NCBI GenBank assembly: GCA_009777935.1
Contig: WRKU01000003.1
Location: 16,554-80,553 of the forward strand
Direction of reading: 5' to 3'
DNA from: Coriobacteriia bacterium
GTDB taxonomy: Bacteria > Actinomycetota > Coriobacteriia > WRKU01
DNA: 64,000 nucleotides
Under the pieces are notes generated by a model. The model made no database searches and was not told where the DNA came from. It saw nothing but the letters and a program-made list of their open reading frames with translations. Position numbers and translations under genes: made by a program. Of this stretch, positions 2,695 to 26,738 are shown in pieces. How positions within the stretch are numbered: the first letter of the stretch is position 1; the number at the start of each line of letters is the position of its first letter.

Positions 2695-2715
2695 GCCGGC
2701 GAGCGATAGGTAACG

Positions 2716-2746
2716 AGAGGGGCTCCGAAAGGGGCCCCTCTTTTTT
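2716..2746 (+). terminator. rho-independent terminator of the hydrogenase operon
   Basis: AGAGGGGC (2716-2723) pairs with GCCCCTCT (2734-2741) across a 10-nt loop and is followed by a T-run (to 2746). Confidence 0.85.
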
Positions 2747-2783
2747 GAGCATTCACGTTTTTTGTGGTATATTACCTATTATA

Positions 2784-2812
2784 TTAATATGTATTATATA
2801 TATAGGTATAAT
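2784..2812 (+). promoter_or_regulatory. putative metY promoter in a very AT-rich patch
   Basis: TATAAT at 2807-2812 with TTAATA 17 nt upstream (2784-2789), inside a 60-nt AT-rich block that stands out from GC-rich flanks. About 50 nt upstream of the metY ATG. Confidence 0.35.
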
Positions 2813-2850
2813 GCTATGTGCATGGTACTATAGGAACGGCCTACCAGTGA

Positions 2851-4149
<1,299 letters not shown>

Positions 4150-4185: not shown

Positions 4186-4228
4186 CACTGCGTTGTGTGA
4201 TTTTTGGCGGAGACATGAGGAGGGTTAC

Positions 4229-13066: not shown

Positions 13067-13085
13067 TTGAATAGGCGAAGAGAAG

Positions 13086-13451
13086 ATGTTTATCCCTATG
13101 CCAGCATCAGTACAAAAAAGGATTCAGTTACCTGAGGCGAGTTGCTTGTGCGATTCCTGCAAGAGGGATGCCTGTCATGTTATCTTGGATTATAAAAGCA
13201 AGGGATTGTGGTTAGGAGCACCCATTTGGGGACACATTACTTCTCGAAAATACTATCTAGTTTGTGATGCGTGTGAACAGGAACGACTGTTGTTACCTCA
13301 AGAAAAATACCTTGTTTACGAAAAGCAGCTGGTTCCATGGCTTGAGCGAGATGGCTTGAGAGCTCTTGCAATTATCTTTTTGCTCACACTTTTATTTATG
13401 GCAGGCATATTCGTAGTTGCTTTCATAGATTTCATGCTTTCTGCGGGATGA
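13086..13451 (+). CDS. putative cognate immunity protein: zinc-ribbon-like (CxxC...CxxC) domain with C-terminal TM helix
   Basis: Starts 20 nt after the rhs stop. 121 aa with CDSCKRDAC...CDAC cysteine pairs and the C-terminal TM segment ALAIIFLLTLLFMAGIFVVAFIDFML. A clear paralogue lies at 15659-16009. Confidence 0.65.
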   Translation: MFIPMPASVQKRIQLPEASCLCDSCKRDACHVILDYKSKGLWLGAPIWGHITSRKYYLVCDACEQERLLLPQEKYLVYEKQLVPWLERDGLRALAIIFLLTLLFMAGIFVVAFIDFMLSAG

Positions 13452-13472
13452 AAGATGTAGACTGCTTATGTG
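13401..13472. repeat. 72-bp cassette-junction repeat, copy 1 (3' end of immunity gene plus downstream)
   Basis: GCAGGCATATTCGTAGTTGCTTTCATAGATTTCATGCTTTCTGCGGGATGAAAGATGTAGACTGCTTATGTG. It has 5 mismatches in 72 (hand alignment) to 15959-16030 and a more diverged copy at 19559-19630. Confidence 0.85.
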
Positions 13473-14037
13473 GGCTTGCTTGTATTTTGCACTTTCAAGA
13501 ATTCCGGCATTAGGCAATAGGCTGCGGGTAGTTATTCTTATAACCATATTCACACTGCTTGTCGTTGTCCTAAGTGCAGCACCACCCGAAAATCTATTTG
13601 TGAGCTTCAAGACACCAGAAAATGCATTTCGCTATGCTTATAATGGAAGTATTGAGGGAGTGCTTTCCGGCAGAGACTCAAGTATGGTGATTTTCGAAAC
13701 CAATCAAGGAGTTTCAAGTTGTGTTTTTCCGAGAACCAGAAATGGATACAAGCTATCAAGCATTTTTTCAGTCAATAAGAGAACACAGAGGAATTTAAAT
13801 GGTGCACCCCAGCTTCTCCAGGTGCATCATGTGAGAAAAACGAATGATTACTATATTGTTGTAGCTTTTTATCTGGCAAGGACTGAAGTTGAGGTATTTG
13901 ACGAAAGTGACAATAGGTTAGATTTTGATATCATCAGAAGTACAAGTAGTGGGCAAATCATCTACATCTATGTTGAGGGATTAACCGATGGTGCTTATAT
14001 GCTAGTCGAGGATAAAAGGATACCTCTTTTTTGGTAA
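13468..14037 (+). CDS. hypothetical membrane-anchored protein
   Basis: 189-aa ORF in the low-GC island. N-terminal TM segment (VVILITIFTLLVVVLSAA) followed by a soluble domain. No family recognised. Confidence 0.5.
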   Translation: MWACLYFALSRIPALGNRLRVVILITIFTLLVVVLSAAPPENLFVSFKTPENAFRYAYNGSIEGVLSGRDSSMVIFETNQGVSSCVFPRTRNGYKLSSIFSVNKRTQRNLNGAPQLLQVHHVRKTNDYYIVVAFYLARTEVEVFDESDNRLDFDIIRSTSSGQIIYIYVEGLTDGAYMLVEDKRIPLFW

Positions 14038-14119
14038 ATCTGGTCATCTGCGTTGAAAAAAACATGAGAGGTCTCCGCTTCTTGGCTATATGGAAAATGC
14101 TCGACAAAGGGGAGTTTAG

Positions 14120-14625
14120 GTGTTTATGTCCACACACAGATTGTTCATCATCATACTGACCGTCTTATTCGCGCTTTTGTCAATAACTACCTACTATCTT
14201 TGGTATGCGCCTATCAACACCAACCGCATCCGCCACAACGATGCATTTGACAAAGAGACGAACACCGCCATCATAAATCTAATAAATCAGGCTATGGGAG
14301 TACAGTTCAATAGGTACGGCAGAGCAATGGCAGATGATATATTCACGGAAAAATTTCAACAATCCCTTGATGAGAACAGGCCTCAGCTCTACAATAGAGG
14401 ATTTTTTATTGGATTGATAGAGACTATATGCAGGGATTAGTACGTGTTGACAGTGGATATTCCAAAAGTCATTTGCAAGAAATTAGCAATATCGATGACG
14501 ATGATATGTTTTATGTAAGAGTTAATGTGACACGTCCTTGGTGGGATAGTGAGCAGTACGATTTCTTTATTACTCGCAGCAAGACCAATATTTTTCAAGT
14601 ATCGCTTATCGAGGTTGGTAGATAG
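14120..14625 (+). pseudogene. hypothetical membrane-anchored protein, probably split by a frameshift near 14428-14440
   Basis: ORFs 14120-14440 (106 aa, N-terminal TM segment LFIIILTVLFALLSITTYYLW) and 14428-14625 (65 aa) overlap by 13 nt in different frames. Together they would give a ~165-aa protein organised like ORF 21484-21927. Confidence 0.4.
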
Positions 14626-14937
14626 GCCAGAGTATTGAAGGCTCAAGAAACTGGAAAGCAGCAAGAATTCAAGTAGATGAGGTGATAGTTGCACTTGTTT
14701 TTCACAAAATACGGTTTTCTCATTGCAGTTCACTCATCCATTCTTTTCACATATGCTGAAAATTGGAGCGTGGCCCTTTTTTGGCCTATGCTTTCTAGCA
14801 TCACTCTATCCTCTGTTCAGCTACGTTGGTTTGTTGCGATGAATGTTGCCAGTGACCTTGCTGATTTCACTAAGCGGCAGCATCACATGGCTGAATCTCC
14901 ACTAATGTATCCTGGCAGTTGGTAGAAAGGATGAGCA

Positions 14938-15339
14938 ATGACAGTTACAAGGTTTATTCTTATGGTATCTTGCATTATGCTACTAGCTGGATTGAGCATG
15001 AGTAATACAGCATGTAGGAATATCGATGAAAGCGTGTTGGAGAAGAACGAAAGAATCCTAAAAAGGACTTTCCTTTGGCACTCAAAAGAGGATACGGATA
15101 TGCTAGCCGAGGTATTTACCAAATTGGAGGTTGACATTGAGAGTGCGAAAATTGAGGAGAAAGTAAGGCGCAATGGAAATCTTTATGGATATATTGTTCG
15201 AATAACTGATACCACAAATAATGTATATTATTTGAAGATAGGCAAGGATTTGTTTTGGAAGTTTAGCATTTGGGAAAACTCTTTGGATGGGAAGATGATT
15301 TATATGAACGGCGCCGATATGGTTTTCCCGGAAGACTAA
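14938..15339 (+). CDS. putative secreted protein or lipoprotein
   Basis: 133 aa. The N-terminus MTVTRFILMVSCIMLLAGLSMSNTAC has a signal-like hydrophobic core followed by Cys, but the lipobox is imperfect. RBS AAAGGA precedes the ATG. Confidence 0.5.
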   Translation: MTVTRFILMVSCIMLLAGLSMSNTACRNIDESVLEKNERILKRTFLWHSKEDTDMLAEVFTKLEVDIESAKIEEKVRRNGNLYGYIVRITDTTNNVYYLKIGKDLFWKFSIWENSLDGKMIYMNGADMVFPED

Positions 15340-15393
15340 AGATATGCAACCTGAGATATTAATCCGAAAAAACGATGGTAAAGTACTGGCAGT

Positions 15394-15657
15394 TTGGCAT
15401 GGAAAGTAGGCCAACTGATGATTGAAACACAAAATTATATTTTCTATACCAACATTAATAAGAATTTTGGCCACAGCGGTGCCGCTGCAGTTGGAACCTT
15501 CGCAACAGGAATTGGCGCTGTTGTCGCTGCGCCTGGAGCAGTTTCATCAACTATCGGTAGCCTTGATCCGCAAGCATCAAATACTCTTGTTAACATAACT
15601 CTTATTACCATTGGACTTGGGGGAGATCCTATCGTTGATAAGATCTCAGATCGATAA
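15394..15657 (+). pseudogene. orphan remnant of an Rhs C-terminal toxin tip (homologous only to the last ~45 aa of the main tip)
   Basis: GAAAVGTFATGIGAVVAAPGAVSSTIGSLDPQASNTLVNITLI parallels GAASVGLFVTGVGAVAAAPAAGEAIVGQALKPLTNVTVDLI at the end of the rhs product. There is no Rhs core upstream. It is followed after 1 nt by an immunity paralogue. Confidence 0.55.
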
Positions 15658-15658
15658 C

Positions 15659-16009
15659 ATGGGTACTTGGAAAAAAAGAGTTCAATTGCCTGAAGACGAG
15701 TTAATCTGTGATTCTTGTGACGAGAGTATCTGTAGCGTTGTGCTAGACTATACGCTCAAAGGGATTTGGCAGGGACCAATTCTTTTTGGGCGTATCGTTT
15801 CTCGTGAGTATTATCTAGTTTGTAACACGTGCAAACAAGAGTGGCCACTGCCACCAAAAGAAAGATATCTTGCCTATGAAAAACAGTTAATTCCGTGGAC
15901 TGAAAGACAAGGTTCGCAGCTTATTGCAATTTATTTCCTGTCTGCATTAGGATTTATAGCAGGCATGTTCGTAGTTGCTTTCATAGACTTCATGCTTTCT
16001 GCGGGATGA
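15659..16009 (+). CDS. paralogous zinc-ribbon/TM immunity protein (orphan cassette)
   Basis: MGTWKKRVQLPEDELICDSCDESICSVVLDYTLKGIWQGPILFGRIVSREYYLVCNTCKQEW...GMFVVAFIDFMLSAG is collinear with the 13086-13451 product, with the same Cys pairs and the same C-terminal TM segment. I chose ATG 15659 rather than the track start 15611. Confidence 0.7.
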   Translation: MGTWKKRVQLPEDELICDSCDESICSVVLDYTLKGIWQGPILFGRIVSREYYLVCNTCKQEWPLPPKERYLAYEKQLIPWTERQGSQLIAIYFLSALGFIAGMFVVAFIDFMLSAG

Positions 16010-16030
16010 AAGATGTGGACTTCTTACGTG
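15959..16030. repeat. 72-bp cassette-junction repeat, copy 2
   Basis: See 13401-13472. Both copies cover the last ~50 nt of the immunity gene plus ~20 nt downstream. Confidence 0.85.
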
Positions 16031-16129
16031 CTAAGTTGGGATAAACGGATCGATTAAAAACGGTGATGCTGCGAACTATTATGTTGTTGGACCAAATCTG
16101 AATTTGCAAAGTTTAGAGCAGAATAGATA

Positions 16130-16166
16130 TTGTCAAAAGGTCGCCATAAGTGGTAACATTTTGACA
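16130..16166 (+). promoter_or_regulatory. putative leaderless promoter and inverted-repeat operator of the abiE-like operon
   Basis: TTGTCA (16130-16135), an 18-nt spacer, TAACAT (16154-16159), then 6 nt to the A of ATG 16166, with no SD. The 8-bp inverted repeat TGTCAAAA (16131-16138) / TTTTGACA (16159-16166) brackets the promoter. Confidence 0.45.
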
Positions 16167-16693
16167 TGACCCAATACGATGACATATACGAAATCGGTGC
16201 TGACAATTACGGACTCGTCACTATTGCAGAAGTGAAAAAACTTGGTATCTCACGCAAAGTGATGAATGCGCTAACAGCGCGTGGGCGTCTATTGAGACGC
16301 GGATACGGCGTTTACAAGCTAGCTCACTATATCCCGACACCCTACGATGTCTATGCGGAGGCTGTTGCGCTTGTTGGGTCGAATGCCTACCTCTACGGTG
16401 AATCTGTTATCTCGATGCTTGAACTAGCTCCCACAAACCCTGCTCGAATATTTGTGGCAACACCTGCGCGCGTGAGGAAGACATTGCCGGAGCATATCAT
16501 TGTAATCAAGGCGGATTATCAACCAACTAACTACGATGGAGTTCCCTCTCAAAGCGTGACCGATGCGATTCGTGCCAGTATGAAATCAGTGATGCCTGAT
16601 AGGCTAATAGATACAGTTGAAGAAGCCCGGCGCCAGGGATACATAAAAGAGACTGAAAGAATCGAACTTCTTGATGAATTGGATGCGTCATGA
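16166..16693 (+). CDS. AbiEi-family (type IV toxin-antitoxin) antitoxin-like transcriptional regulator
   Basis: 175 aa. The N-terminus ...YGLVTIAEVKKLGISRKVMNALTARGRLLRRGYGVYKL is the AbiEi_4-type winged HTH pattern. It overlaps the next ORF at ATGA. Confidence 0.65.
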   Translation: MTQYDDIYEIGADNYGLVTIAEVKKLGISRKVMNALTARGRLLRRGYGVYKLAHYIPTPYDVYAEAVALVGSNAYLYGESVISMLELAPTNPARIFVATPARVRKTLPEHIIVIKADYQPTNYDGVPSQSVTDAIRASMKSVMPDRLIDTVEEARRQGYIKETERIELLDELDAS

Positions 16694-17514
16694 CCAAGAC
16701 ACCAAACAGCAGAAGGAATCTTGACATAGCGATTGAAAGAGCTTTTGGAACAGGCGATAATTTCTTGCGAACAAGAACCCTTATTGCCAATACAATCGTC
16801 GGCCAGATGCTTCCATCAGGTGTTGTGAAAGGTGGCAGTTCTTTGAAGTTTCGCTGGGGCAATGAAAATGCACGTTTCACGAATGACCTAGACACAGTCC
16901 GAGGTACTGCTCTTACAGAATTTGAAGAACAGATGGCGGAGCTACTGGAGAAAGGGTGGCATGATTTCACCGGCAGACTTGTGGCTAGAGCGCCCGCAAC
17001 ACCAGAAGGTGTTCCCACTCAATACGTGATGCAGCCATTTGAGGTAAAGCTTTCCTACAAAGGAAAGGCGTGGCTAACAGTAATTCTTGAAATCGGACAC
17101 GATGAGATAGGCGATGCCTATGAGCCCGAGTATACAATCTCTGAAAGCATCGTCCAAATATTTTCGAAAATCGGACTGCCTAGCCCGGCTCCCATGCCTT
17201 GCATGGCACTTCATCATCAAATCTCACAGAAGCTTCATGGACTCAGCGAAGAAAACAGCTCGCGTGCCCATGATCTCATAGACCTGCAACTGATTGTCAA
17301 AAATGAAAACATCGATTATGCGGCTACGCGACAGGCTTGCGTGAGGCTCTTTGCATATCGAAATCTTCAGGCTTGGCCGCCAATCATCAAGAAAAAAGAA
17401 AACTGGGGTGAGTTATACGATGCCCAAAAGAACAATCTTTCTGTGCTGGACAGTGTCGATGAGTCTGTTGTCTGGACAAATAAGCTGATCAAGAGAATAG
17501 ACGCTGTGGCATAA
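16690..17514 (+). CDS. AbiEii/AbiGii-family nucleotidyltransferase toxin-like protein
   Basis: 274 aa. VKGGSSLKFRWGNENARFTNDLD fits the GG(S/T)xL...R.S.D(L/I)D nucleotidyltransferase core of AbiEii. It is translationally coupled to the upstream AbiEi-like gene. Confidence 0.65.
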   Translation: MTKTPNSRRNLDIAIERAFGTGDNFLRTRTLIANTIVGQMLPSGVVKGGSSLKFRWGNENARFTNDLDTVRGTALTEFEEQMAELLEKGWHDFTGRLVARAPATPEGVPTQYVMQPFEVKLSYKGKAWLTVILEIGHDEIGDAYEPEYTISESIVQIFSKIGLPSPAPMPCMALHHQISQKLHGLSEENSSRAHDLIDLQLIVKNENIDYAATRQACVRLFAYRNLQAWPPIIKKKENWGELYDAQKNNLSVLDSVDESVVWTNKLIKRIDAVA

Positions 17515-17617
17515 AGTGACGCAGGAGAATTCCACAGAAACATCGTGTAATCAAACCCTGATGAAATTGCTACATATTTACAGAATCTTTTCTCCCCCTA
17601 AATATAAGAATTGTTCA

Positions 17618-18106
17618 ATGAAGCGAAGAGCACTCATTGTCTTTGTAACGCTTGCGGTAGCTGTGATGACCACAGGGTGCAACAAGCACCCCCTAGAATC
17701 ACGTATCGTAAGATATGCTGAGAGAAACCATACGGGTGAATACCTAGAGATAAACCTAGCGGATTTTACCGATTTTGAATGGGATAGAGCTGTTGTCTAT
17801 GCACATCCAGTAACAAAAGCAGAAATAGAAGAAGCTCTCGGCATAGAGTGCGATATCCTCTTTGATCTGCAGTCCGGGATTATATTTGCCCATAACGGTA
17901 AAGTTATGTATGACGAAGTGTTTAAGCAAAAGTATCGAGGAATTGATCCAGTAGTTGCTTCATTTCTGATGCATCATAACCAAGACGTGAATAAAACTCC
18001 ACGTTTTAGGGTGCTGACTCCGCAAGACGCTATATTCGAACTCCGCAAGAACGAATTTGGCCCATCTGAACACTACAATTATCACAGACTATATCCGAAG
18101 GATTAA
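17618..18106 (+). CDS. putative lipoprotein (candidate immunity protein)
   Basis: I chose ATG 17618 inside track ORF 17516-18106. MKRRALIVFVTLAVAVMTTGC has a signal peptide plus a lipobox-like TTGC. Its last ~24 codons lie inside the 89-bp repeat. Confidence 0.55.
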   Translation: MKRRALIVFVTLAVAVMTTGCNKHPLESRIVRYAERNHTGEYLEINLADFTDFEWDRAVVYAHPVTKAEIEEALGIECDILFDLQSGIIFAHNGKVMYDEVFKQKYRGIDPVVASFLMHHNQDVNKTPRFRVLTPQDAIFELRKNEFGPSEHYNYHRLYPKD

Positions 18107-18122
18107 TTCTCAATATGTCAGT
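18034..18122. repeat. 89-bp direct repeat, copy 1
   Basis: ATTCGAACTCCGCAAGAACGAATTTGGCCCATCTGAAC...GGATTAATTCTCAATATGTCAGT has 3 mismatches in 89 (hand alignment) to 22516-22604. Confidence 0.9.
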
Positions 18123-18272
18123 ATCGGCTAAAAAGTATTCTGTATTCCCGTCCATTCTTAGATGCACGAAAGAACAAATCGTTGAGACATCTGAAGTCTC
18201 ATAGCGACAACCCTTCGAGTGTTGAAATAATAGCACCACCTCGCACCTTGGCAACTGAATAGGTGACACACT

Positions 18273-18560
18273 AACCCGTATACCTACAACGCCGAGCGCA
18301 CTGACCGCACCACCGGCATGCAGTATCTGCGTGCGCGCTACTACGCACCCGATGCAGGCCGCTTTATCACCGAAGACACCTATCGTGGGGAATCGGGAGA
18401 TCCATTGACGCATAACCAGTATGTCTACACCGCCAACAATCCGCTGCTTTATAGCGACCCAAGCGGGCATATGTACAAAAAGCTATGCACGAGAAAGCCC
18501 AATCTGGAGACCATTCTTGGCTTCAGGATCTCAGCAAAATATATTGGGATGCATACATGA
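18273..18560 (+). pseudogene. orphan Rhs core-end fragment with a different, very short C-terminal tail
   Basis: 18273-18470 aligns base for base with 12086-12283 of the main rhs gene. The first 50 nt are identical and there are about 6 mismatches in the first ~113 nt. It encodes NPYTYNAERTDRTTGMQYLRARYYAPDAGRFITEDTYRGESGDPLTHNQYVYTANNPLLYSDPSGH, then only 29 codons to a stop. The frame is closed by TGA 18264-18266 just upstream. Confidence 0.8.
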
Positions 18561-18627
18561 AAAGGTATTTTCTCGAATAGAATAGAGTGCTGTATTGACG
18601 TAAGCGAACATTGCACGATGAAAGGAT

Positions 18628-19335
18628 ATGAGGCGGATGAACAGAATAATGGAAGGCATCAAGCGCAAGAAATGGGCAGTAGCAGCATACGTTGCAGGAA
18701 CGTTTATAGTGTCGTTCACGCGGCTTTCCTATGCACTCATTAATCCCGATAGCAACATTCTTGCAGCAGCTACTGATGCATCTTTTTTTGCGGTAGGGTT
18801 GTTTGTTCTTTTTGTTTTTGGCACACTGCTTTTTCCTGTTGGTCTGTATCTTTGGATGCGTCCGATAACGCTCGGAAAGTTTTTTAAGGAGCTTGCTCTG
18901 GGACTCATGCTTGCTCTTGGTGCGGTGTTTTTGTTTGGCATAGTTTTGGGAGCTCTCGCGATATTTGTATTTTGGGATACAGAAGTGGCGGGGATGCATG
19001 TTATTGAAATAATTGCTACGCTAGGTGCCATAGTATCTGCAGCGTATATTGTCTGCATAGTAGCACGTATGGCTGCACTGGGCTCAGTTGCTGCTCGTAT
19101 TTCATGGCGTACATTTCTTGCTGTATTGGCAATGCTTGTGGGCGGAGATATTTTGCAGGCAATACTTGATTTTCTGCCGAAAAATGTTTTGTTTGTAATT
19201 ATAAATGCGACGCTAACGACAACTTTTGCAACATTCACATTTGTCGTTGCGGTTATGTTATGTCGCAAGTATGACGGTTCAAGAAATGGACAAATGAATG
19301 CCCCCGAGTCGATAGTGGAAGCAAAAATAACCTAA
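18628..19335 (+). CDS. polytopic membrane protein (about 6 TM), candidate immunity protein; paralogue of 24543-25208
   Basis: 235 aa and very hydrophobic. Shares collinear motifs with the 24543-25208 product: LYLWMRPI(T/A)L..F.K, SAY(I/V)(V/I)C, L(D/E)(F/Y)LP(K/N)NV. Lies immediately downstream of the orphan Rhs tip. Confidence 0.65.
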   Translation: MRRMNRIMEGIKRKKWAVAAYVAGTFIVSFTRLSYALINPDSNILAAATDASFFAVGLFVLFVFGTLLFPVGLYLWMRPITLGKFFKELALGLMLALGAVFLFGIVLGALAIFVFWDTEVAGMHVIEIIATLGAIVSAAYIVCIVARMAALGSVAARISWRTFLAVLAMLVGGDILQAILDFLPKNVLFVIINATLTTTFATFTFVVAVMLCRKYDGSRNGQMNAPESIVEAKIT

Positions 19336-19414
19336 TCTCAATAGACTCAAATCAAGATAGACTACAAAATGCTATGAGTAGTTTATATTACGGAGCCAAA
19401 AGAGGGAAAAATAT

Positions 19415-19609
19415 ATGAAACTTGAAGATGGGGCCTGCCAGAAGCTTTGTGTGTGAAGCCATTGAACAGCAAGTGAGGTGGACGATGAGAAGAAGTTTTT
19501 TACTCGCGCTGTATACTTTTGGGGCTGGGGATGTTATAGCGGGAGCGCAAGATATATGGTGGGTATATTCGTAGTTGCCTTCATAGTTTCTATGTTTTCT
19601 GCGGGATGA
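19415..19609 (+). pseudogene. degenerate third copy of the zinc-ribbon/TM immunity gene
   Basis: ATG 19415 opens MKLEDGACQKLCV*. Downstream fragments (..EQQVRWTMRRSFLLALYTFGAG.., ..GIFVVAFIVSMFSAG*) match the middle and end of the 13086 and 15659 products but are in different frames. Ends in junction-repeat copy 3. Confidence 0.5.
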
Positions 19610-19630
19610 AAAACGTAGACTCCTGACGTG
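19559..19630. repeat. 72-bp cassette-junction repeat, copy 3 (diverged)
   Basis: GTGGGTATATTCGTAGTTGCCTTCATAGTTTCTATGTTTTCTGCGGGATGAAAAACGTAGACTCCTGACGTG aligns with copies 1 and 2. It shares ACGTGCTAA with copy 2. Confidence 0.75.
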
Positions 19631-19684
19631 CTAAAATAGCAACGTTGCTGTAACCACTTCCATCAGGGGTGTCAGAAGGGTAAA

Positions 19685-20113
19685 ATGATGGACTTTCTTT
19701 CAATTGAGCGAGTGTGGGAAGATATAGAATTTTTTGAGATTGAAGTTGTGGCTCAATCAGAGACTATCTGTGCAAAAACTCAAAGCTACACACAGGATTC
19801 ACGTATAGACGAACTCGCCTCACGCCTGGCGACTTTTCCGCAAAGCCCCGATGACAGATATCTATGGGAAAATGGCACTAAAGGCGATCATTCGACAACA
19901 TGTGTGTCTCTTGAGTTTTCATGTGAAGATGCACTTGGTCATCTTCTTATTGAAGTCTATATGGAACTGGAGGACGGGGGTTCCTACGAAACACACAATT
20001 GTTGCTTTTATATTAGAACAGAGCCTGACACACTCAATCGTTTTGGCAAATCTCTTGCCAGGATAAACGAGAGAGGCATTGGCAAAAAAGCTACCTTGGC
20101 ACCATTGGTGTAG
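19685..20113 (+). CDS. hypothetical cytoplasmic protein (candidate immunity protein)
   Basis: 142-aa acidic ORF in the island with no TM segment and no recognised family. Confidence 0.45.
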   Translation: MMDFLSIERVWEDIEFFEIEVVAQSETICAKTQSYTQDSRIDELASRLATFPQSPDDRYLWENGTKGDHSTTCVSLEFSCEDALGHLLIEVYMELEDGGSYETHNCCFYIRTEPDTLNRFGKSLARINERGIGKKATLAPLV

Positions 20114-20197
20114 AGTAGTAAGTGCTAAAGTTTGGATGACGCTGATTGTTCTGTGAATTTGCATGGTTCGTAGACCAACAACAGGGGTGATTTAACA

Positions 20198-20980
20198 TTG
20201 GTACGTACCATCCACCTAGATAGTTCCTTGCCTGAAAACAGCAACTATTCTTACGAGCAAGTTGCATTTTGGTCGATGCCTGAAAACAGGAACTACGCTT
20301 GTGAGCAAATCTCTCTATGGCTAGACAAGCTGTTGGCTGAAAATTTTGCCGGAAAAGATATCATCGAACAGCAGCTTGCCGGAGCAGCCTATAAAGTGTA
20401 TGGCGAGTATGAATATATCTCTGTGATTTTTGCGCCGAAGACTAATGAACGTTATCCGTATCGTACGCGAGTTCCAGTAACGATGGATGCTAGTCAACCC
20501 AACGGAAACATAGTAACGTTTTTGTTGCATGTTGCAGATGGTTTTATTAATGAAATGCAAATATATAACGCAGATGGAACAGATATAGATGGCAACTTTG
20601 ATGTCTCGAATGTGAGCTATTTATTCGCCGAAGAGATAGCTTTGGGGAATGCTATGACCGTTGAGCAGGAAATCGCAGACGACAAAAGGCGTCTAGGGAA
20701 ATTAATGGAGGAGAAAAAGGTGCCATTAGGTGCAAGACCGTGGGTGGCATACCTTGTACTCGTATTCGGAGTAGCTGCTTTGCTGGCAACAGTTTTTCGT
20801 TATCCTTACTACCCCTATTACTCAATTATGCTCGGAATATTTGCAATCTACTTTTCTCTGTTTGTGTGGCTCAATCCACAGGCAGAACCGAGACAAAAAC
20901 TGATAGCAAAAGTTGCAGCAGTACTTGGTGTCGTGACACTCCTTGCAATCGTTGGATATTGGCTGATAGGTTACGTATGA
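20198..20980 (+). CDS. fusion protein: unknown N-terminal ~170-aa domain + C-terminal copy of the ~90-aa three-TM module
   Basis: TTG start with AGGGGTGA upstream. The N-terminal part contains a 16-aa duplication (PENSNYSYEQVAFWSM / PENRNYACEQISLWLD) arising from a diverged 48-bp tandem repeat at 20231-20326. The C-terminal MEEKKVPLGARPWVAYLVLVFGVAALL...NPQAEPRQKLIAKVAAVLGVVTLLAIVGYWLIGYV is paralogous to the ORFs at 22762-24421. Confidence 0.6.
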   Translation: MVRTIHLDSSLPENSNYSYEQVAFWSMPENRNYACEQISLWLDKLLAENFAGKDIIEQQLAGAAYKVYGEYEYISVIFAPKTNERYPYRTRVPVTMDASQPNGNIVTFLLHVADGFINEMQIYNADGTDIDGNFDVSNVSYLFAEEIALGNAMTVEQEIADDKRRLGKLMEEKKVPLGARPWVAYLVLVFGVAALLATVFRYPYYPYYSIMLGIFAIYFSLFVWLNPQAEPRQKLIAKVAAVLGVVTLLAIVGYWLIGYV

Positions 20981-21210
20981 GAATGTTGAATAATCAAACA
21001 AACACCGCTGTTAAAGATATTAACGATGCATCGTACGAACACGTATAAAAAATGCTCCACTGCCATCAGGAAGTCCAAGTTGGGCGGACATCGGCAAGCT
21101 GTCGTTAGGAGAAATTCAAAGAAGAGCGCAACAAGGACTACCTGGCTATAAGGCAATATTTAAGCTGCTTAACAGCAACGAGTACAACAGGCAGAAAAGA
21201 GGTGTTCTCT

Positions 21211-21438
21211 ATGTATGGTTTAAACGATCTGATAATGTTTTTAAATCGGCTTGAAGAGGAAAAATTTTATTACAGATTGACAAAGATTAGGGATAGCATC
21301 ATGGTCATTGTCTCTGTTCCTGGGCAAAAATGGGAAATTGAGTTCATGCCTGATGGCTCGATTGAAATAGAGAAATACTGCAGTAATGGTGAAATTTTTG
21401 ACGAGCGTGAAATAGATGTTTTATTCAAGGAGTTTTAG
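21211..21438 (+). CDS. small hypothetical protein (candidate immunity protein)
   Basis: 75 aa from ATG 21211, with AAAGAGG 8 nt upstream (track start GTG 21202). The start overlaps the end of an open frame that looks like a toxin-tail remnant. Confidence 0.45.
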   Translation: MYGLNDLIMFLNRLEEEKFYYRLTKIRDSIMVIVSVPGQKWEIEFMPDGSIEIEKYCSNGEIFDEREIDVLFKEF

Positions 21439-21483
21439 GAATAAATCAGCGGTTGAAAACGACATAATATTTATTATTCGTAT

Positions 21484-21927
21484 GTGGGGCTGATAAAGAG
21501 AGGTGAGAAAATCGATTTTTTGAAGGGTTTAATAAATAATCAGATAGTAAGAGTTATCAGCGCTATGCTGGCTGTCCTGCTGCTTGCTTATCTTGTGATG
21601 TTTCTGGACACAAATTCTCTCTATCGTGAAGTGAGAGATGTTTTTCTCTGGAAGGTTGATAGAGCGGAAACAGAAGGAAGGCCGATAAATGCCTATAACA
21701 TGAGCTATCGCTTTCCCGACGAAGAGCTCGGAGGGGTAAATTTGGAATTAGTGCGACTGTTCACTCTGCACAATTTTAAGGACGGATACATATGGGCTCT
21801 ATATAGCAAGGAAGCTTATAACAAAGATGGAAAAATTATCAATGGATCAATAGGTATATTCACAAAATGGAAGATTCATAAAGAAAACGGCGAATGGGAA
21901 ATCGTCGAGATATTTGAAGCACCATAG
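21484..21927 (+). CDS. hypothetical membrane-anchored protein
   Basis: 147 aa. N-terminal TM segment (VISAMLAVLLLAYLVMFL) plus a ~100-aa domain ending ...KENGEWEIVEIFEAP. Organisation resembles the split ORF at 14120-14625. Confidence 0.5.
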   Translation: MGLIKRGEKIDFLKGLINNQIVRVISAMLAVLLLAYLVMFLDTNSLYREVRDVFLWKVDRAETEGRPINAYNMSYRFPDEELGGVNLELVRLFTLHNFKDGYIWALYSKEAYNKDGKIINGSIGIFTKWKIHKENGEWEIVEIFEAP

Positions 21928-22049
21928 CAGTGACCCATTGGTGGAACAAAAATGGAGGCGACAGTTGCTAGAGAGTTAGGAGAGACCACTCTCGAGTTTA
22001 CGGTTTGATACTTGCTCTTCTGAGTTCATTGGATATTATGAGGTGGGAT

Positions 22050-22664
22050 ATGCGAGATAGCAGATGGATTGTAGCCGCGGTATTGTTTGGGGTAATTTTG
22101 ATGATTGTTGGCTGTAGCGATAGAGCAAAACCAGAATATAAAGAGATAACTATCGGCCAAGATGTTGCAGATGTAACACTATCGGGTGGCAAGCAATTAT
22201 TATCAATACGAATATCAGGTTGCTATTATTATCGTGAACCTAATGGTCATGTGGTTTTAGTAACGACACGTGATGGAAAAACAATCACAGCGGCGGTCGT
22301 CTATTCTGTCGACAGAGATTTGGTGTACAGCAAGGGCGTTGGCGTTGTTGATGAGAGCAGCAATCTTGATGACTATATAGGTCAACCGTTTGGTGTTCTT
22401 AAGCGAGAGTTTGGGCCACCACCCCTTGATCTTGGCAGTGGCTTCTATATACCAGCATATTTCACCAATCGGGGAAACCTTGTGACCTTTGGATCGCATG
22501 CTAGCCTATCAGAAGATTCGAACTCCGCAAGAACGAATTTGGCCCATCTGAACGCTACAATTATTACAGGCTATATCCGAAGGATTAATTCTCAATATGT
22601 CAGTTGTACTGCGCTGAAGAACATCGGACAACAATTACTCACCAACTTACCTTATTTCAAATAA
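22050..22664 (+). CDS. putative lipoprotein whose 3' end was replaced by the 89-bp repeat read out of frame
   Basis: ATG 22050 is preceded by GAGGTGGG. MRDSRWIVAAVLFGVILMIVGC has a signal peptide plus a lipobox-like IVGC. From about 22516 the reading frame crosses repeat copy 2 in a different frame from copy 1 and runs on 60 nt past it. Confidence 0.5.
   Translation: MRDSRWIVAAVLFGVILMIVGCSDRAKPEYKEITIGQDVADVTLSGGKQLLSIRISGCYYYREPNGHVVLVTTRDGKTITAAVVYSVDRDLVYSKGVGVVDESSNLDDYIGQPFGVLKREFGPPPLDLGSGFYIPAYFTNRGNLVTFGSHASLSEDSNSARTNLAHLNATIITGYIRRINSQYVSCTALKNIGQQLLTNLPYFK
22516..22604. repeat. 89-bp direct repeat, copy 2
   Basis: See 18034-18122. Confidence 0.9.
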
Positions 22665-22761
22665 AACGCAGTTTAGAATGTCATGCTGATGGGGGTCAAC
22701 TATTTCGTTGCAGGGGTTAGTTTAGAACGTTAGCCACAAATTTCAAAGGAGTCGATATCTT

Positions 22762-23031
22762 ATGCAAGATGAAGAAGTACCTCGCGGCGCAGAACCGTGG
22801 TTTCCTTATTTCACTCTGGTATTGAGCATATTTCCGTTAATGACTCAGACTGTACGGTGGCTATTTTTCATGCCAATATACGCAACGTACTTTTCTGTTT
22901 TAATCCTGCGTGAACCACAAACTAGTGCAACGGCAAAATCAATCGCAAGAATTACGCTTGTATTAGGAATAATGGGCTTGATGATGTTTTGCGTGCAACT
23001 GGTTCTTATTTTAATGAACTACACCGAATAG
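22762..23031 (+). CDS. small three-TM membrane protein, array member 2
   Basis: 89 aa: MQDEEVPRGAEPWFPYFTLVL...LREPQTSATAKSIARITLVLGIMGLMMF. It has the same architecture as the other array members (N-terminal (V/T)P.G..PW motif, 2 TM, basic loop, TM3). AAGGAG lies upstream. Confidence 0.6.
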   Translation: MQDEEVPRGAEPWFPYFTLVLSIFPLMTQTVRWLFFMPIYATYFSVLILREPQTSATAKSIARITLVLGIMGLMMFCVQLVLILMNYTE

Positions 23032-23059
23032 AGTTTTTTACGTATGATAAAGATACGGG

Positions 23060-23395
23060 ATGGGAGAGCTGATGGAAAAACAAAAGACCCCTTTAGGCAC
23101 CAAATGGTGGGTTGCAGGCCTTTCTCTTGTTCGCGGAGTAGCAATCTTTGTGCTGACAGTCTTCTTCTTTGGATTTAGCGCGATTTTTGGTACCGTAGCG
23201 CTCCCGACAGCACTTCCGCGCCCTTATGTGTATTCGCTCCTTTTGCTGATACCGGCAATCGGCCTCTCTGCGCTCGTTTTGCGCCAACCGCACATTGGCA
23301 GAAAACAGAAATATGTCGCGTGGACTGCTGCTGTGCTAGCAGGAGTTTCTCTGGCCGCTTTTCTGAGATTGCTCAGTATGTTTTCACCGGCCTAA
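23060..23395 (+). CDS. small three-TM membrane protein, array member 3
   Basis: 111 aa: ...MEKQKTPLGTKWWVAGLSLVRGVAIFVLTVFFF...LRQPHIGRKQKYVAWTAAVLAGVSLAAFL. Paralogous pattern. Confidence 0.6.
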   Translation: MGELMEKQKTPLGTKWWVAGLSLVRGVAIFVLTVFFFGFSAIFGTVALPTALPRPYVYSLLLLIPAIGLSALVLRQPHIGRKQKYVAWTAAVLAGVSLAAFLRLLSMFSPA

Positions 23396-23461
23396 GGCAG
23401 AGAGCTGTGTCGTGGTGTTTTTCTGTGGTTACTCGACGTAACAGCAAGTTAGGGGAAATTA

Positions 23462-23743
23462 ATGGAAGACAAAAAGGTGCCATTAGGAGCAAGGCCGTGG
23501 GTCGCGCCTACTGCTCTGATTTGTAGCATGATGGCATTCCCGCCAATTATGAATGATGATTATGGCTTGGCCGTTCTCTTTCTCGTAATTGCGGCTCCCT
23601 TGTGTATATTGGTCTTGCGTGAGAAGAAAGCTAGTAAGGGAGCAAGATTTGCTGCGACAATGGCGACAGTGTGGACCGCAATTCTGTCGATGCCCTTTTT
23701 AAGTGAGCTTGCGGCGATACTTGATACAGCTATTGCGGGCTAA
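23462..23743 (+). CDS. small three-TM membrane protein, array member 4
   Basis: 93 aa: MEDKKVPLGARPWVAPTALI...LREKKASKGARFAATMATVWTAILSM. The first ~45 nt are nearly identical to the corresponding part of 20198-20980 (GAAAAAGGTGCCATTAGG.GCAAG.CCGTGGGT). Confidence 0.65.
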   Translation: MEDKKVPLGARPWVAPTALICSMMAFPPIMNDDYGLAVLFLVIAAPLCILVLREKKASKGARFAATMATVWTAILSMPFLSELAAILDTAIAG

Positions 23744-23802
23744 CTTTCGATATGCAGATGCATGTCATGGCTTTAAGAACTCTAAGAGAGAGCGAGAAGT
23801 CC

Positions 23803-24069
23803 ATGCAGGAAAAACAAAATGGTTTTTGGAGAGGAAATCTATCAATAGCGCAACTTTCGTTTCTTTCGTTATTTTGTGCGATAGTGGCTCTACCGTTGGC
23901 TCTTATGCGGTTCCCTCTTTTCCCAGCCGCACTTGGCATAAGCGCTATTTGGGGCAGCTATTTTGTATTTCGGGATCCGCAGGCAGAACCGAAGCAAAAG
24001 CTCATGGCGGCTGCTGCAACAATACTCGGGATTGCCGCACTTCTTGTGATTCTCGTATTTTGGCTGTAA
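23803..24069 (+). CDS. small three-TM membrane protein, array member 5
   Basis: 88 aa from ATG 23803 inside track ORF 23752-24069: MQEKQNGFWRGNLSIAQLSFLSLFCAIVALPLAL...FRDPQAEPKQKLMAAAATILGIAALLVILVFWL. It shares the PQAEP(R/K)QKL motif with 20198-20980. Confidence 0.6.
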   Translation: MQEKQNGFWRGNLSIAQLSFLSLFCAIVALPLALMRFPLFPAALGISAIWGSYFVFRDPQAEPKQKLMAAAATILGIAALLVILVFWL

Positions 24070-24133
24070 AAACATGAGACGATGGAAACGGAGCCATAGC
24101 ACAAATGCTGTATGGGTTACAGAGGAGTGAGAT

Positions 24134-24421
24134 ATGAGCGCGTCAACGCAAGATGATAAGTTACCTTTTGGAGCACAGCCATATGTTGCCTATCTCTCAC
24201 TCGTGGGTGGTGTGTCAGCTCTCTTGGCGTTTTTTGTCGATGTACTCTATCCTGTCATCCTTGGATTCTTTGCGTTTTACCTTGGCTATCTGGTTTGGAG
24301 TGAACCGGAAGCGGATCGAAAGTTAAAATTGATTGCAAAAATCGGTACTGTGCTCGGAGCCATGGCGCTCGTTGCATTTATGATTTTTTGGCTAATTGGC
24401 TATTTTGTTACGACTACATAG
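24134..24421 (+). CDS. small three-TM membrane protein, array member 6
   Basis: 95 aa: MSASTQDDKLPFGAQPYVAYLSLVGGVSALLAFF...WSEPEADRKLKLIAKIGTVLGAMALVAFMIFWLIGYF. The C-terminal WLIGY matches the end of 20198-20980. Confidence 0.65.
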   Translation: MSASTQDDKLPFGAQPYVAYLSLVGGVSALLAFFVDVLYPVILGFFAFYLGYLVWSEPEADRKLKLIAKIGTVLGAMALVAFMIFWLIGYFVTTT

Positions 24422-24542
24422 TCTTTGCTGTTTTGTACTCGTTCATAATTTTGCGCTGTGCTGAAAAAGTGTGAGTGGCTTTCACTCAAGAAGTTTTGTT
24501 GATGCACACGTAGTATAATGAGTATCGTGAGCAAAAGAGGGC

Positions 24543-25208
24543 ATGAGGGCAATGGACGATATCCGAGAAATCGTCATACGGCATAAACCTGCGGTAGTGA
24601 CATACGCACTAGGTCTTTTTCTGCTGACGTTCGCACAGCTTTTGCTCACATGGTGGATATCGGACTTGATTATAGATAGAACACTTGCCATGCGGGAGCT
24701 ATTTTTACTGGGATTATCTGTCCCATTCGCCCTTCTTGGTCTCGCGGTTTTATTGAGAAGTCTGTACTTGTGGATGCGTCCTATCGCGCTCAAATCGTTC
24801 CTAAAACGAATGGCTGCTCTCACGCTCGTTTCACTAGGTCTTGGCGTAGTCCTCGGAATCTTCTTAGGGATTCTTGCCATGATTGCGCTTCCAAATGCAC
24901 GCGATGGATTCATGTTTGGCAGAATCTTCATTGATATCTTAGGGACTTTAGGTGGCATTCCCATCTCGGCGTATGTCATCTGCCTTCTTGCTACCATAAT
25001 CACAACAAGATTCTTTAGCTTGCGTATACCGCCACGCCTGTTCTTTACTATGGTGCCGATAATGGCAGGCGCCATCTTTGTGCAAACCGCACTCGAGTAT
25101 CTGCCTAATAACGTCTTTATTGTGGTGATACGCGCAGCCGTGATAGCAGCTATCCTTACCGCTGTATTTGTTGTTGCGGTGGTAAGGGCACAAGTTGACT
25201 GTTCGTAA
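24543..25208 (+). CDS. polytopic membrane protein, paralogue of 18628-19335 (candidate immunity protein)
   Basis: 221 aa and hydrophobic, with collinear motifs shared with 18628-19335 (LYLWMRPIALKSFLK, SAYVIC, LEYLPNNVFIVVI). The antisense ORF 24482-25252 is rejected because this paralogy is on the plus strand. Confidence 0.65.
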   Translation: MRAMDDIREIVIRHKPAVVTYALGLFLLTFAQLLLTWWISDLIIDRTLAMRELFLLGLSVPFALLGLAVLLRSLYLWMRPIALKSFLKRMAALTLVSLGLGVVLGIFLGILAMIALPNARDGFMFGRIFIDILGTLGGIPISAYVICLLATIITTRFFSLRIPPRLFFTMVPIMAGAIFVQTALEYLPNNVFIVVIRAAVIAAILTAVFVVAVVRAQVDCS

Positions 25209-25253
25209 TCCCACATGGGTGCCAGCACGGAAAGAATATATATCGTGAACAAA

Positions 25254-25282
25254 TTTACATAAATAATAACTTGTGCTACTAT
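25254..25282 (+). promoter_or_regulatory. putative leaderless promoter of the HTH/nucleotidyltransferase pair
   Basis: TTTACA (25254-25259), a 17-nt spacer, TACTAT (25277-25282), then 6 nt to ATG 25289, with no SD. Same geometry as the abiE-like promoter at 16130. Confidence 0.45.
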
Positions 25283-25288
25283 TTATGT

Positions 25289-26014
25289 ATGAATTCGATA
25301 GCTGAAAAAAATGAACGAGCGACATTGAGCGGAAAATACACTACGATTCAGTCGGCCGATGCTTTGGGTGTTTCTAGACATCAAGTTGTGCAGCTAATTC
25401 ATGCTGGAGAGCTACATGCTGTGCGCACGGCTGGTGATGTCTTCTTGGTGGATGCGGCATCAGTAGCAGATTACGCACGTTTGCGACAAGGTAAGGGGCG
25501 CCCCTTCTCCGTAAATGTTGCGTGGGCGGCGCTGTGGCTGTTGTCAGGTCTTGACGTGGGCTGGCTTGCGTATCAGCAACGCAGACGATTACGTATGCGG
25601 CTCAACGAAATGAGCGCTGAAGAAGTGGTATGGGCTGTGCGCCGACGTGCTCGATTGTTGCGTGTTCGTATCGACGAATCGTTTCTCAAAACCGCACACG
25701 AGAACCTCGTGTTATCTGGCGTAAGTTCTAACCTATTATCGGAACTAGGGCTTACCGATGGTACGGGTAAACTAGAAGGCTACCTTGCTGACCGCGATCT
25801 AGAGGCGTTCATGCAGAACACCTTTTCCGCTCAGGACGATGACACAAATGTTATACTGCGAGTTGTTGGCGAGAACATACCCTTCAATCTTGCAGGCTAC
25901 AAGGAAATGCCCAGAGCAGTAGTTGCAACCGATCTGGCCGCTTCTGCCGATGTTCGTGAACGTAGCGCGGGGCTTAATTTGCTGGAGGAATTGTTGAATG
26001 AGTGGCGTGGCTAA
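25289..26014 (+). CDS. excisionase-type HTH DNA-binding protein (antitoxin-like)
   Basis: YTTIQSADALGVSRHQVVQLIHAGELHAVRTAGDVFLVDAASVADY fits the excisionase/MerR-like HTH pattern, followed by a ~180-aa C-terminal domain. The 3' end overlaps the next ORF by 17 nt. Confidence 0.55.
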   Translation: MNSIAEKNERATLSGKYTTIQSADALGVSRHQVVQLIHAGELHAVRTAGDVFLVDAASVADYARLRQGKGRPFSVNVAWAALWLLSGLDVGWLAYQQRRRLRMRLNEMSAEEVVWAVRRRARLLRVRIDESFLKTAHENLVLSGVSSNLLSELGLTDGTGKLEGYLADRDLEAFMQNTFSAQDDDTNVILRVVGENIPFNLAGYKEMPRAVVATDLAASADVRERSAGLNLLEELLNEWRG

Positions 26015-26738
26015 GCTAGAGTTCCCTTTTGGAAAACCGCTACCTCCGTGGGATATAGTCACGGAGGTAGTTTCGCGTATTGATGCCGATAAATGGATGC
26101 TCATCGGTGGTTTGATGGTGCAGGCGCACGCGATGATGGCAGAACTTGAGTCACGCGCGACGGTCGATGTCGACCTGCTCATTGATGTGCTCGCGGATAC
26201 CTTGAATATTGGACATGTTATTGCCGGGCTTGAGGAGCTGGGATTCGAGCTGCATGAACCGGGGCTACGAGGAGCACCATTCCATCGCCTGAAGCGAGAC
26301 AATCAGATTATTGATGTGCTTATCGCCGATCATCTGCCAAGTGGTAAGAGCAAGGCGGCGAAAATTGGACTGTTACATTTGATGGAAACACCGGGTGGAG
26401 CGCAGACTCTGAATCGTCGAACAAAAGTGGCAATCGAAGTTCCCGACGGAGTGTGTGAGTTCTATATGCCTGATGTGTTGGGTGCGTTAGTCCTTAAATC
26501 GGCAGTTTACCGTTCTGATAACCGCGATAAAGACAGGCATCTCAGCGACGCAGCTTTGCTAGCAAGCCTCGTTACCGATATCGGGACGGAGTTGAGCCGC
26601 CTGCATGGTTCTGATAGGAAAAGGCTTCGCTCGACAGCTGGCGCACTCGCCGACTCCAACCACCCCGCATGGATGAACTTACCGAGCAAGAATAGGTTGC
26701 GCGGTCAGGATGTTTTACGTATCCTGAGCAGTGATTAG
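25998..26738 (+). CDS. putative nucleotidyltransferase-fold protein (AbiEii/MNT-like toxin candidate)
   Basis: 246 aa. LIGGLMVQAHAMMAELESRATVDVDLLID fits the GG-x(n)-[ST]-x-D-x-D pattern of minimal nucleotidyltransferases. Coupled to an upstream HTH gene as in type IV/VII TA modules. Confidence 0.45.
   Translation: MSGVAKLEFPFGKPLPPWDIVTEVVSRIDADKWMLIGGLMVQAHAMMAELESRATVDVDLLIDVLADTLNIGHVIAGLEELGFELHEPGLRGAPFHRLKRDNQIIDVLIADHLPSGKSKAAKIGLLHLMETPGGAQTLNRRTKVAIEVPDGVCEFYMPDVLGALVLKSAVYRSDNRDKDRHLSDAALLASLVTDIGTELSRLHGSDRKRLRSTAGALADSNHPAWMNLPSKNRLRGQDVLRILSSD

Follow-up and report, generated by a model that had tools for sequence, protein, structure and literature searches.

The 64,000-nucleotide stretch of contig WRKU01000003.1 analysed here (the window), part of a Coriobacteriia metagenome-assembled genome, holds exactly six paralogous three-helix membrane modules of 88-107 aa, named M0 to M5, which open reading frame (ORF) listing and alignment placed where an initial annotation of the sequence had put them. 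On balance, we find it somewhat probable that these three-transmembrane (3-TM) modules are membrane immunity proteins against the Gly/Ala-rich C-terminal tip of an Rhs protein made by this bacterium and its neighbours. The link to the tip comes from the homologues found outside the organism, both of which sit close behind a related tip. M0 stands apart from the other copies, and M1 to M5 follow one another head to tail on the + strand with intergenic gaps of 8-66 nt:

M0, 20705-20980, + strand: 91 aa, the C-terminal part of ORF 20198-20980; 122 bits with the family hidden Markov model (HMM)
M1, 22762-23031, + strand: 89 aa; HMM 121 bits; AGGAG 12 nt 5′ of the ATG; annotated as FWG78_01375
M2, 23072-23395, + strand: 107 aa (111 aa from the start at 23060); HMM 106 bits; GGGAG 5 nt 5′ of the ATG at 23072
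M3, 23462-23743, + strand: 93 aa, the most divergent copy; HMM 117 bits, leave-one-out 46 bits
M4, 23803-24069, + strand: 88 aa (105 aa from the start at 23752); HMM 94.5 bits; without the N-terminal PLGxxPW motif
M5, 24134-24421, + strand: 95 aa; HMM 125 bits; 49% identity to M0; GAGGAG 6 nt 5′ of the ATG

Across the 791 six-frame ORF segments of the window, the family HMM scored the six modules at 94-125 bits and the best other segment at 4.9 bits, and leave-one-out HMMs gave 46-102 bits for the six. An HMM made from the two external homologues alone also ranked the six modules at the top (59, 59, 40, 35, 16 and 9 bits), with M5, M0, M1 and M4 at 35-59 bits, M3 at 16 and M2 at 9. No seventh copy was found in the window with the six-frame HMM search, nor among the predicted proteins of the organism in databases. 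AlphaFold2, given an eight-sequence alignment, folded M0 into helices at residues 12-32, 37-56 and 62-89 (pLDDT 88, pTM 0.74), and a Foldseek search of the PDB with this model returned generic three-helix bundles alone (E >= 0.9). The HMM, the leave-one-out HMMs and the AlphaFold2 model together bear out the initial description of six paralogous 3-TM modules, one fused and five in tandem. The motifs that had been proposed as common to the copies are roughly right, but the VPLGARPW-type motif is absent from M4, imperfect in M2 (TPLGTKWW) and altered in M3, and the charged-loop motif, though present, is kept loosely in M3 and M5. The start of M4 differs among gene callers, which give 88, 103 or 105 aa. 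Lys and Arg are concentrated in the N-terminal tail and in the loop between helices 2 and 3, and the YPYY-like loop between helices 1 and 2 is uncharged; by the positive-inside rule this distribution points to an N-in/C-out topology, and the modules are predicted to be small integral membrane proteins with an inner N-terminus, three helices and an outer C-terminus.

Pairwise amino acid identity among the six copies is 21-49%, and third-codon identity is 0.24-0.40, which means that the synonymous sites are saturated. Saturated third codons combined with amino acid identity of up to 49% point to old alleles held under constraint at the protein level, and not to recent duplicates made in place, in agreement with the claim of an old, diversifying family. 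By segment, the mean pairwise identity is highest in the predicted cytoplasmic N-terminal tail (41%) and lowest in the outer loop and helix 3 (21-23%). The state of the ORFs also bears on whether they could be decaying or unexpressed, so that the array would have no present function. The weakly hydrophobic helix 1 of M3, a 17-aa insertion past helix 1 in the M2 alignment, the merging of the M0 frame with an upstream ORF and the abundance of gene scraps in the surrounding island would all agree with decay, and promoter and terminator scans were uninformative, with counts no higher than the shuffled expectation. However, all six ORFs are unbroken and as long as is typical of the family, a purine-rich, Shine-Dalgarno (SD)-like sequence lies 5-12 nt 5′ of each start, and their protein-level conservation extends across saturated synonymous divergence, all of which renders a functionless array highly improbable.

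The copy that had been reported as fused does lie in a continuous ORF (20198-20980), called as 260 aa by NCBI (MCL2024414.1, FWG78_01355) and as 234 aa by JGI, of which the part before M0 is:

N-terminal region, 20198-20704, + strand: about 170 aa, soluble, in frame into M0, with an internal 16-aa direct repeat

This region has no family match in Pfam, NCBIfam, PHROGs or PADLOC, and its pLDDT is below 50 in an AlphaFold2 model of the 260-aa fusion made from the single sequence without an alignment. In the alignment, the first codon of M0 coincides with the ATG at which the free-standing copies start, and in M0 this ATG is preceded by AGGGAAATTA, an SD-like sequence identical to that of M3, where the similarity to M3 begins abruptly. 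The tract common to M0 and M3 has sharp bounds, starts 9 nt 5′ of the ATG and covers 53 nt at 91% identity, and it is most readily explained by recombination or gene conversion; the high similarity initially noted between these two copies is real but confined to it, the remainder being about 28% identical. Since the G-run of M0 is one base shorter than that of M3, the TAG that is in frame 5′ of M3 is out of frame in M0. The fusion may be an accident of the recombination junction, a by-product in which M0 has retained its own ATG and SD-like sequence and may also be translated alone from them. A frameshift may have given rise to the fusion, although a G restored in M0 would not neatly end the upstream ORF.

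With regard to the distribution of the family, a word-indexed search of 5.8 billion proteins with the module alignment returned the organism's own genes only, and an HMM search run exhaustively over 1.84 billion cluster representatives gave 15 matches, six of them the window copies. The true outside homologues are two, P0007 (85 aa, E = 7e-15) and P0008 (92 aa, E = 2e-10), present with intact ORFs on five and three metagenome contigs, respectively, and M0 is the window copy nearest to both (BLASTP 63.9 bits against P0007 and 48.1 bits against P0008). Six further matches are marginal (E = 1e-5 to 9e-4); five of these show some match to Pfam DUF4190, above its cut-off in P0011 and P0014, and P0015 is without a Pfam match. 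P0010 and P0015 were rejected as family members on account of their housekeeping contexts, P0010 being also of 68-70% GC, and P0009, whose 1065 aa are repetitive and gave 11 partial matches, was rejected as an artefact.

The HMM scan of proteins with their neighbourhoods, a check that had been proposed along with the family, places both outside homologues two genes 3′ of a homologous Rhs tip. On the longest P0007 contig (L003) the order is Rhs core end and tip, a 117-aa protein of a second family that we call ZnR-TM, P0007 and a 173-aa protein; on the P0008 contigs it is tip end, a ZnR-TM of 127-129 aa and P0008, the 3-TM gene being the second gene 3′ of the tip in both loci. P0007 and P0008 are only 43% identical, the ZnR-TM of contig L008 is about 20% identical to that of the window, and at the nucleotide level hardly any similarity to the window is left. 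Given this strong divergence, the shared order of tip, ZnR-TM and 3-TM gene is a conserved synteny and not the trace of one recent transfer. Searches of GTDB representative genomes with the tip, of viral contigs, and of plasmids by tblastn with the tip and M5 gave no matches.

In the window itself, the Rhs gene and the ZnR-TM cassettes are arranged as follows:

Rhs/YD-repeat shell, 4193-12268, + strand: Pfam DUF6531, TEN_YD-shell and RHS_repeat; ends in a DPSGH cleavage-type motif
Rhs C-terminal tip, 12269-13066, + strand: 265 aa, putative membrane-inserting toxin
ZnR-TM 1, 13086-13451, + strand: 121 aa, with CxxC...CxxC and a C-terminal TM helix; immediately after the tip
Partial second tip (C-terminal part only), 15394-15657, + strand: alignable with the C-terminal ends of the tips in the window and on L003 and L008
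ZnR-TM 2, 15659-16009, + strand: paralogue of 13086-13451, 60% identical (BLASTP 143 bits); gene call L002 2898-3248
Third cassette scrap, 19422-19634, + strand: 1.07 kb 5′ of M0; third copy of repeat D2 (80%)

The whole Rhs protein (4193-13066) is 2945-2957 aa long and has a signal-peptide-like N-terminus. Its core end (...NNPLLYNDPSGH), which fits the PxxxxDPxG(H/L) core-end motif, stands directly before the tip, and the L003 tip comes after ...DPVGRVDPTGL. As in other Rhs tips, the tip follows a YD shell and a core-end motif, and an orphan core end elsewhere in the window, 85% identical at the nucleotide level, continues differently. The tip is rich in Gly (12%), Ala (19%) and Val (18%), and it contains a hydrophobic stretch of about 45 aa and a second hydrophobic segment; from these features it looks membrane-active and may be a toxin. 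It is 44% identical to the L003 tip, and the tip end on L008 is also homologous to it. The first ~50 tip residues past DPSGH (window 12290-12440) are rich in Val, Thr, Asn and Lys (VVNAVKKVATAVVTTVKKVVTTVVNTVVRVVNAVVNTVKN) and are absent from the L003 tip. A word-indexed protein search with the tip gave 8000 candidates, none of which scored; its Gly/Ala words probably saturated the list, which makes this search uninformative on distribution.

The ZnR-TM gene, which encodes a Zn-ribbon protein of about 120 aa with a C-terminal TM helix and is always immediately 3′ of the tip, had been overlooked in the initial annotation. Its alignment holds four invariant Cys, and in the 5.8 billion proteins of the word-indexed search the family consists of four clusters only, each beside a tip. 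A scan of metagenome contigs with ZnR-TM recovered L003 again and nothing further, and nothing rose above threshold in Pfam, NCBIfam, PHROGs or PADLOC scans with ZnR-TM, the modules or the tip. There are three full cassettes of tip and ZnR-TM (window, L003 and L008), in addition to the partial second cassette and the scrap of the window; in the scrap, the final ~20 codons of ZnR-TM follow the middle motif of the tip (FGAGDVIAGAQD) in a different frame, which implies an internal deletion. ZnR-TM has never been found without a tip fragment, whereas 3-TM genes have, and it is probably the producer's own neutraliser and a candidate cognate immunity protein. A separate comparison concerned the proteins that follow the cassettes. 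The window protein at 13468-14037 and the 173-aa protein after P0007 (L003 1895-2416) are both post-cassette and 170-190 aa long, with a TM helix at the N-terminus ahead of a soluble domain; they share no detectable homology, and the notion of a shared cassette from which the 3-TM gene had been deleted, which was sought through them, was given up.

The adjacency of the ZnR-TM and 3-TM genes in both outside loci could also mean that the two proteins form an obligate heteromer, in which the 3-TM protein works only together with ZnR-TM, whose C-terminal helix would complete a four-helix bundle, and the array would be a set of alternative partners. There is a precedent for joint action in that ExiC and ExiD protect against the toxin EsxX only if co-produced (PMC12744356). 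We hold this arrangement to be unlikely, however, as the window has two ZnR-TM genes and one scrap for six 3-TM genes, none of them adjacent, and as 3-TM genes do occur in places without the tip fragment that ZnR-TM never lacks.

Although no copy reaches a Pfam threshold, the statement that the modules belong to no described family has to be qualified, since a profile-profile link to DUF4190 (PF13828) exists. With the threshold relaxed to E <= 1, PF13828 still recovered none of the window copies, nor did any other Pfam model give a meaningful match to them, and P0007 has no PF13828 match either. P0008 aligns with the full 62-position DUF4190 profile (E = 1.1e-3, 19.1 bits), below the gathering cut-off of 35. 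When the eight-member family was aligned by hhalign to DUF4190-type proteins, a set that was itself selected from the family-HMM matches, the probability was 97.8% (E = 1.1e-12, score 74, 74 columns), and reversed-sequence controls scored about 30. The family and DUF4190 have in common a layout of helix, helix, short basic loop and helix, and we regard the family, on these alignments, as a remote and specialised branch of the DUF4190 superfamily which does not formally qualify for the Pfam entry. No published function of DUF4190 was found in the literature searched; proteins in which a Zn-ribbon is fused to a DUF4190 domain may also occur.

This relationship opens the possibility that the modules are not immunity proteins at all, but the local expansion of a generic DUF4190-type protein, for instance one serving in membrane stress or as an accessory to toxin export or insertion, which hitch-hiked with the island. 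The profile-profile probability and the P0008 match to PF13828 are in keeping with this, as are P0010 and P0015, DUF4190-type proteins that adjoin ion-channel, phospholipase D-family (PLDc_2) and H+-PPase genes. Because relatives occur in such housekeeping neighbourhoods, the fold itself argues neither for nor against immunity. The presence of six diverged copies in a toxin island of low GC content and the conserved triad of genes are nevertheless hard to square with housekeeping, and the family proper was found nowhere else in 1.84e9 proteins, so that we consider a generic role distinctly unlikely.

In weighing immunity against the Rhs tip, several findings count against it. The classical slot of a cognate immunity gene is occupied by ZnR-TM and not by a 3-TM module; no 3-TM gene follows either the full (12269-13451) or the partial (15394-16009) cassette of the window, where unrelated genes are found instead; the glycine-zipper pattern of the tip is weak, with short small-xxx-small runs only; and the tip has no match in Pfam, NCBIfam or PDB sequences and no homology to characterised pore-formers. 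The outside loci are only two and all of their contigs are of 2.7 kb or less, which makes the synteny statistics thin, and the housekeeping neighbours of P0010 and P0015, the closest relatives in the superfamily, add to the doubt. The initial proposal of immunity against the Rhs tip is backed by both outside loci but is weakened by the window copies, none of which adjoins any tip and which are separated from the full tip, 5′ of them, by 7.6-11 kb. In the window, five tandem copies and one separate copy, 21-49% identical and lodged in a low-GC Rhs island, do have the arrangement of orphan or tandem arrays of immunity proteins.

Alternatively, the modules could confer immunity against another membrane-acting toxin, not present in the window, and their proximity to the tip in the outside loci would then reflect the general clustering of immunity genes in Rhs islands. 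Such islands collect unrelated immunity genes, that of the window has about 25 small unannotated ORFs, and a 3-TM gene is never the first after a tip. Yet the only two outside homologues, strongly diverged as they are, occupy one and the same place with respect to this tip family, and no further toxin domain was seen on the outside contigs. We judge another toxin to be quite improbable as the target, and we retain the Rhs tip.

The setting of the modules is the low-GC Rhs island at 13000-26700 (GC 40-47%, against about 58% in the flanks), with an orphan tip and Rhs fragments, and the toxin/immunity setting described initially holds good. The island contains about 25 small ORFs on the same strand, nearly all without a Pfam match, and its 3′ end is a Mur ligase (murE-like) gene at 26731. 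It is flanked on one side by genes of hydrogenase and Cys-Met metabolism (292-4149) and on the other by cell-wall genes of the Mur ligase, MraY and FtsW types, whose cluster starts at 26731. No tRNA or integrase was seen around it, and Rfam, tRNA and tandem-repeat scans were null. PHROGs, PADLOC, plasmid tblastn and viral contigs revealed no phage, plasmid, defence-system or transporter context for the modules; as for holins and phage lysis proteins, the modules have no PHROGs match and no relatives on viral contigs, and their neighbours are Rhs and immunity-type genes. Other features of the island are:

Orphan Rhs core-end fragment, 18269-18560, + strand: 85% nucleotide identity to 12082-12285 (repeat D1); tblastn 85% over 53 aa
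Polytopic membrane protein, 18628-19335, + strand: 235 aa; paralogue of 24543-25208 (34% identity, 91 bits)
Polytopic membrane protein, 24543-25208, + strand: 221 aa; immediately 3′ of M5

The orphan core end has its toxin part truncated after PSGHM. Together with the partial tip and ZnR-TM 2, the scrap, the recombination patches and the low GC content, it gives the island the hallmarks of Rhs orphan arrays. The two polytopic paralogues bracket the region, one after the orphan core end and the other closing the 3-TM array; they have no family matches and no relatives in GTDB representative genomes, and may be a further membrane immunity family. Just 5′ of M1, a patch of 89 nt (22516-22604) is 97% identical to 18034-18122 between unrelated flanks and marks another recombination junction 5′ of M1-M5. 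ORFs 17516-18106 and 22005-22664 read this patch in different frames, and the C-terminus of 22005-22664 is consequently probably chimeric. Between the second tip cassette and the orphan core end lies a toxin-antitoxin/abortive-infection pair, in which an AbiEi_4-like gene (16166-16693) overlaps an AbiEii gene (16690-17514). At the 3′ edge (25271-26738), an HTH_17-type protein (25271-26014) overlaps a 246-aa protein with a faint AbiEii match (E = 0.005), and this pair immediately precedes the murE-like gene.

We infer both the toxicity of the tip and protection by the modules, which could operate as follows. The Rhs protein would be exported by way of its signal-peptide-like N-terminus, and the tip beyond DPSGH, presumably released at this motif as in Rhs proteins generally, would insert into the cytoplasmic membrane of the target and dissipate the membrane potential. 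A matching 3-TM protein in the target membrane would bind the hydrophobic helices of the tip, or occupy what these helices require, and so block the assembly of a pore. As the tip is polymorphic, a cell that faces it would benefit from several diverged immunity alleles, which would explain the five tandem old copies and M0. ZnR-TM, being tied to the synthesis of the toxin, would protect the producer, and 3-TM genes could be retained without the toxin; this division of labour is suggested by gene arrangement only.

To our knowledge, interbacterial antagonism is essentially unstudied in this uncultured Coriobacteriia lineage. If the modules are immunity proteins, then the hydrophobic Rhs tip, ZnR-TM and the 3-TM protein make up a new and very rare trio, and a second, independent case in which paralogous membrane immunity genes are strung together against a membrane-depolarising toxin, an arrangement that as far as we know has been documented so far mainly in staphylococci. 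Through the link to DUF4190, a role that can be tested would moreover be suggested for part, at least, of a widespread family.

Among known systems, Staphylococcus aureus carries 2-16 non-identical tandem tsaI genes behind the membrane-depolarising LXG-type toxin TspA of its type VII secretion system (T7SS), with toxin fragments within the cluster (PMC9484751; bioRxiv 10.1101/443630). In both cases a polymorphic, apparently membrane-acting toxin is followed by non-identical integral-membrane paralogues in tandem with toxin fragments around them, and just as the tsaI genes are conserved in one 5′ block and variable beyond it (PMC9484751), the modules are most conserved in their N-terminal tail. 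The proteins themselves differ, as TsaI is a DUF443 protein in which five TM helices are predicted, whereas the modules have three helices in about 90 aa and no DUF443 match in Pfam. TspA is a T7SS substrate and the protein described here a Sec-type Rhs protein of a Coriobacteriia bacterium, in which an extra gene, ZnR-TM, stands between toxin and 3-TM gene.

A parallel to the pairing of two protectors could be EsxX of S. aureus ST398, a glycine-zipper membrane toxin that is neutralised in the cytoplasm by ExiAB and, when it comes from outside, by the membrane proteins ExiCD; exiAB always accompanies EsxX, and exiCD also occurs as an orphan in antitoxin islands (PMC12744356). Here too there would be two unrelated classes of protector, with ZnR-TM always beside the tip like ExiAB and the 3-TM genes in an orphan array like ExiCD. 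This likeness suggests, tentatively and with low confidence, a two-tier immunity to a monoderm Rhs toxin, in which the tail-anchored ZnR-TM would guard the producer while the toxin is being made and exported, and the DUF4190-like 3-TM array would guard against incoming toxin. If true, it would extend the compartment-specific immunity logic of EsxX from the T7SS to Rhs toxins and offer an initial clue to what one branch of DUF4190, a large superfamily still uncharacterised, does. However, ExiAB is a soluble DUF5085 protein pair and ExiCD are larger polytopic proteins, with no detected homology to ZnR-TM or the 3-TM modules, and the EsxX study argues, for Tse5, that Rhs shells may render a cytoplasmic neutraliser unnecessary (PMC12744356).

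Tse5 itself is an Rhs protein of Pseudomonas aeruginosa whose pore-forming C-terminal part, Tse5-CT, depolarises the membrane and is countered by Tsi5, a small integral membrane immunity protein (PMC9637101). The common ground is an Rhs C-terminal tip with hydrophobic Gly-rich helices set against a small membrane immunity protein, which in the window is a putative one. Tsi5, encoded by one gene only, is predicted to have two TM regions, and its toxin is delivered by the type VI secretion system of a Gram-negative bacterium; none of the 15 matches of the exhaustive family search fell outside the family or the DUF4190-type proteins. The window tip is without a sequence match to any PDB chain, among which Tse5 is presumably included. 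The immunity proteins of the E1-group pore-forming colicins also have three TM helices in about 110 aa and neutralise the pore domain through intramembrane helix-helix contacts; they are plasmid-borne, single-copy and proteobacterial, and no sequence relationship between them and the modules appeared in the Pfam scan. To DUF4190 the modules are tied by their layout and the hhalign result, and they are set apart from it by the Pfam threshold that they do not reach and by the non-toxin contexts of the DUF4190-type relatives P0010 and P0015. What is new here is the protein family, which is very rare, and what is already known from these systems is the role that it would have, that of membrane immunity paralogues in tandem.

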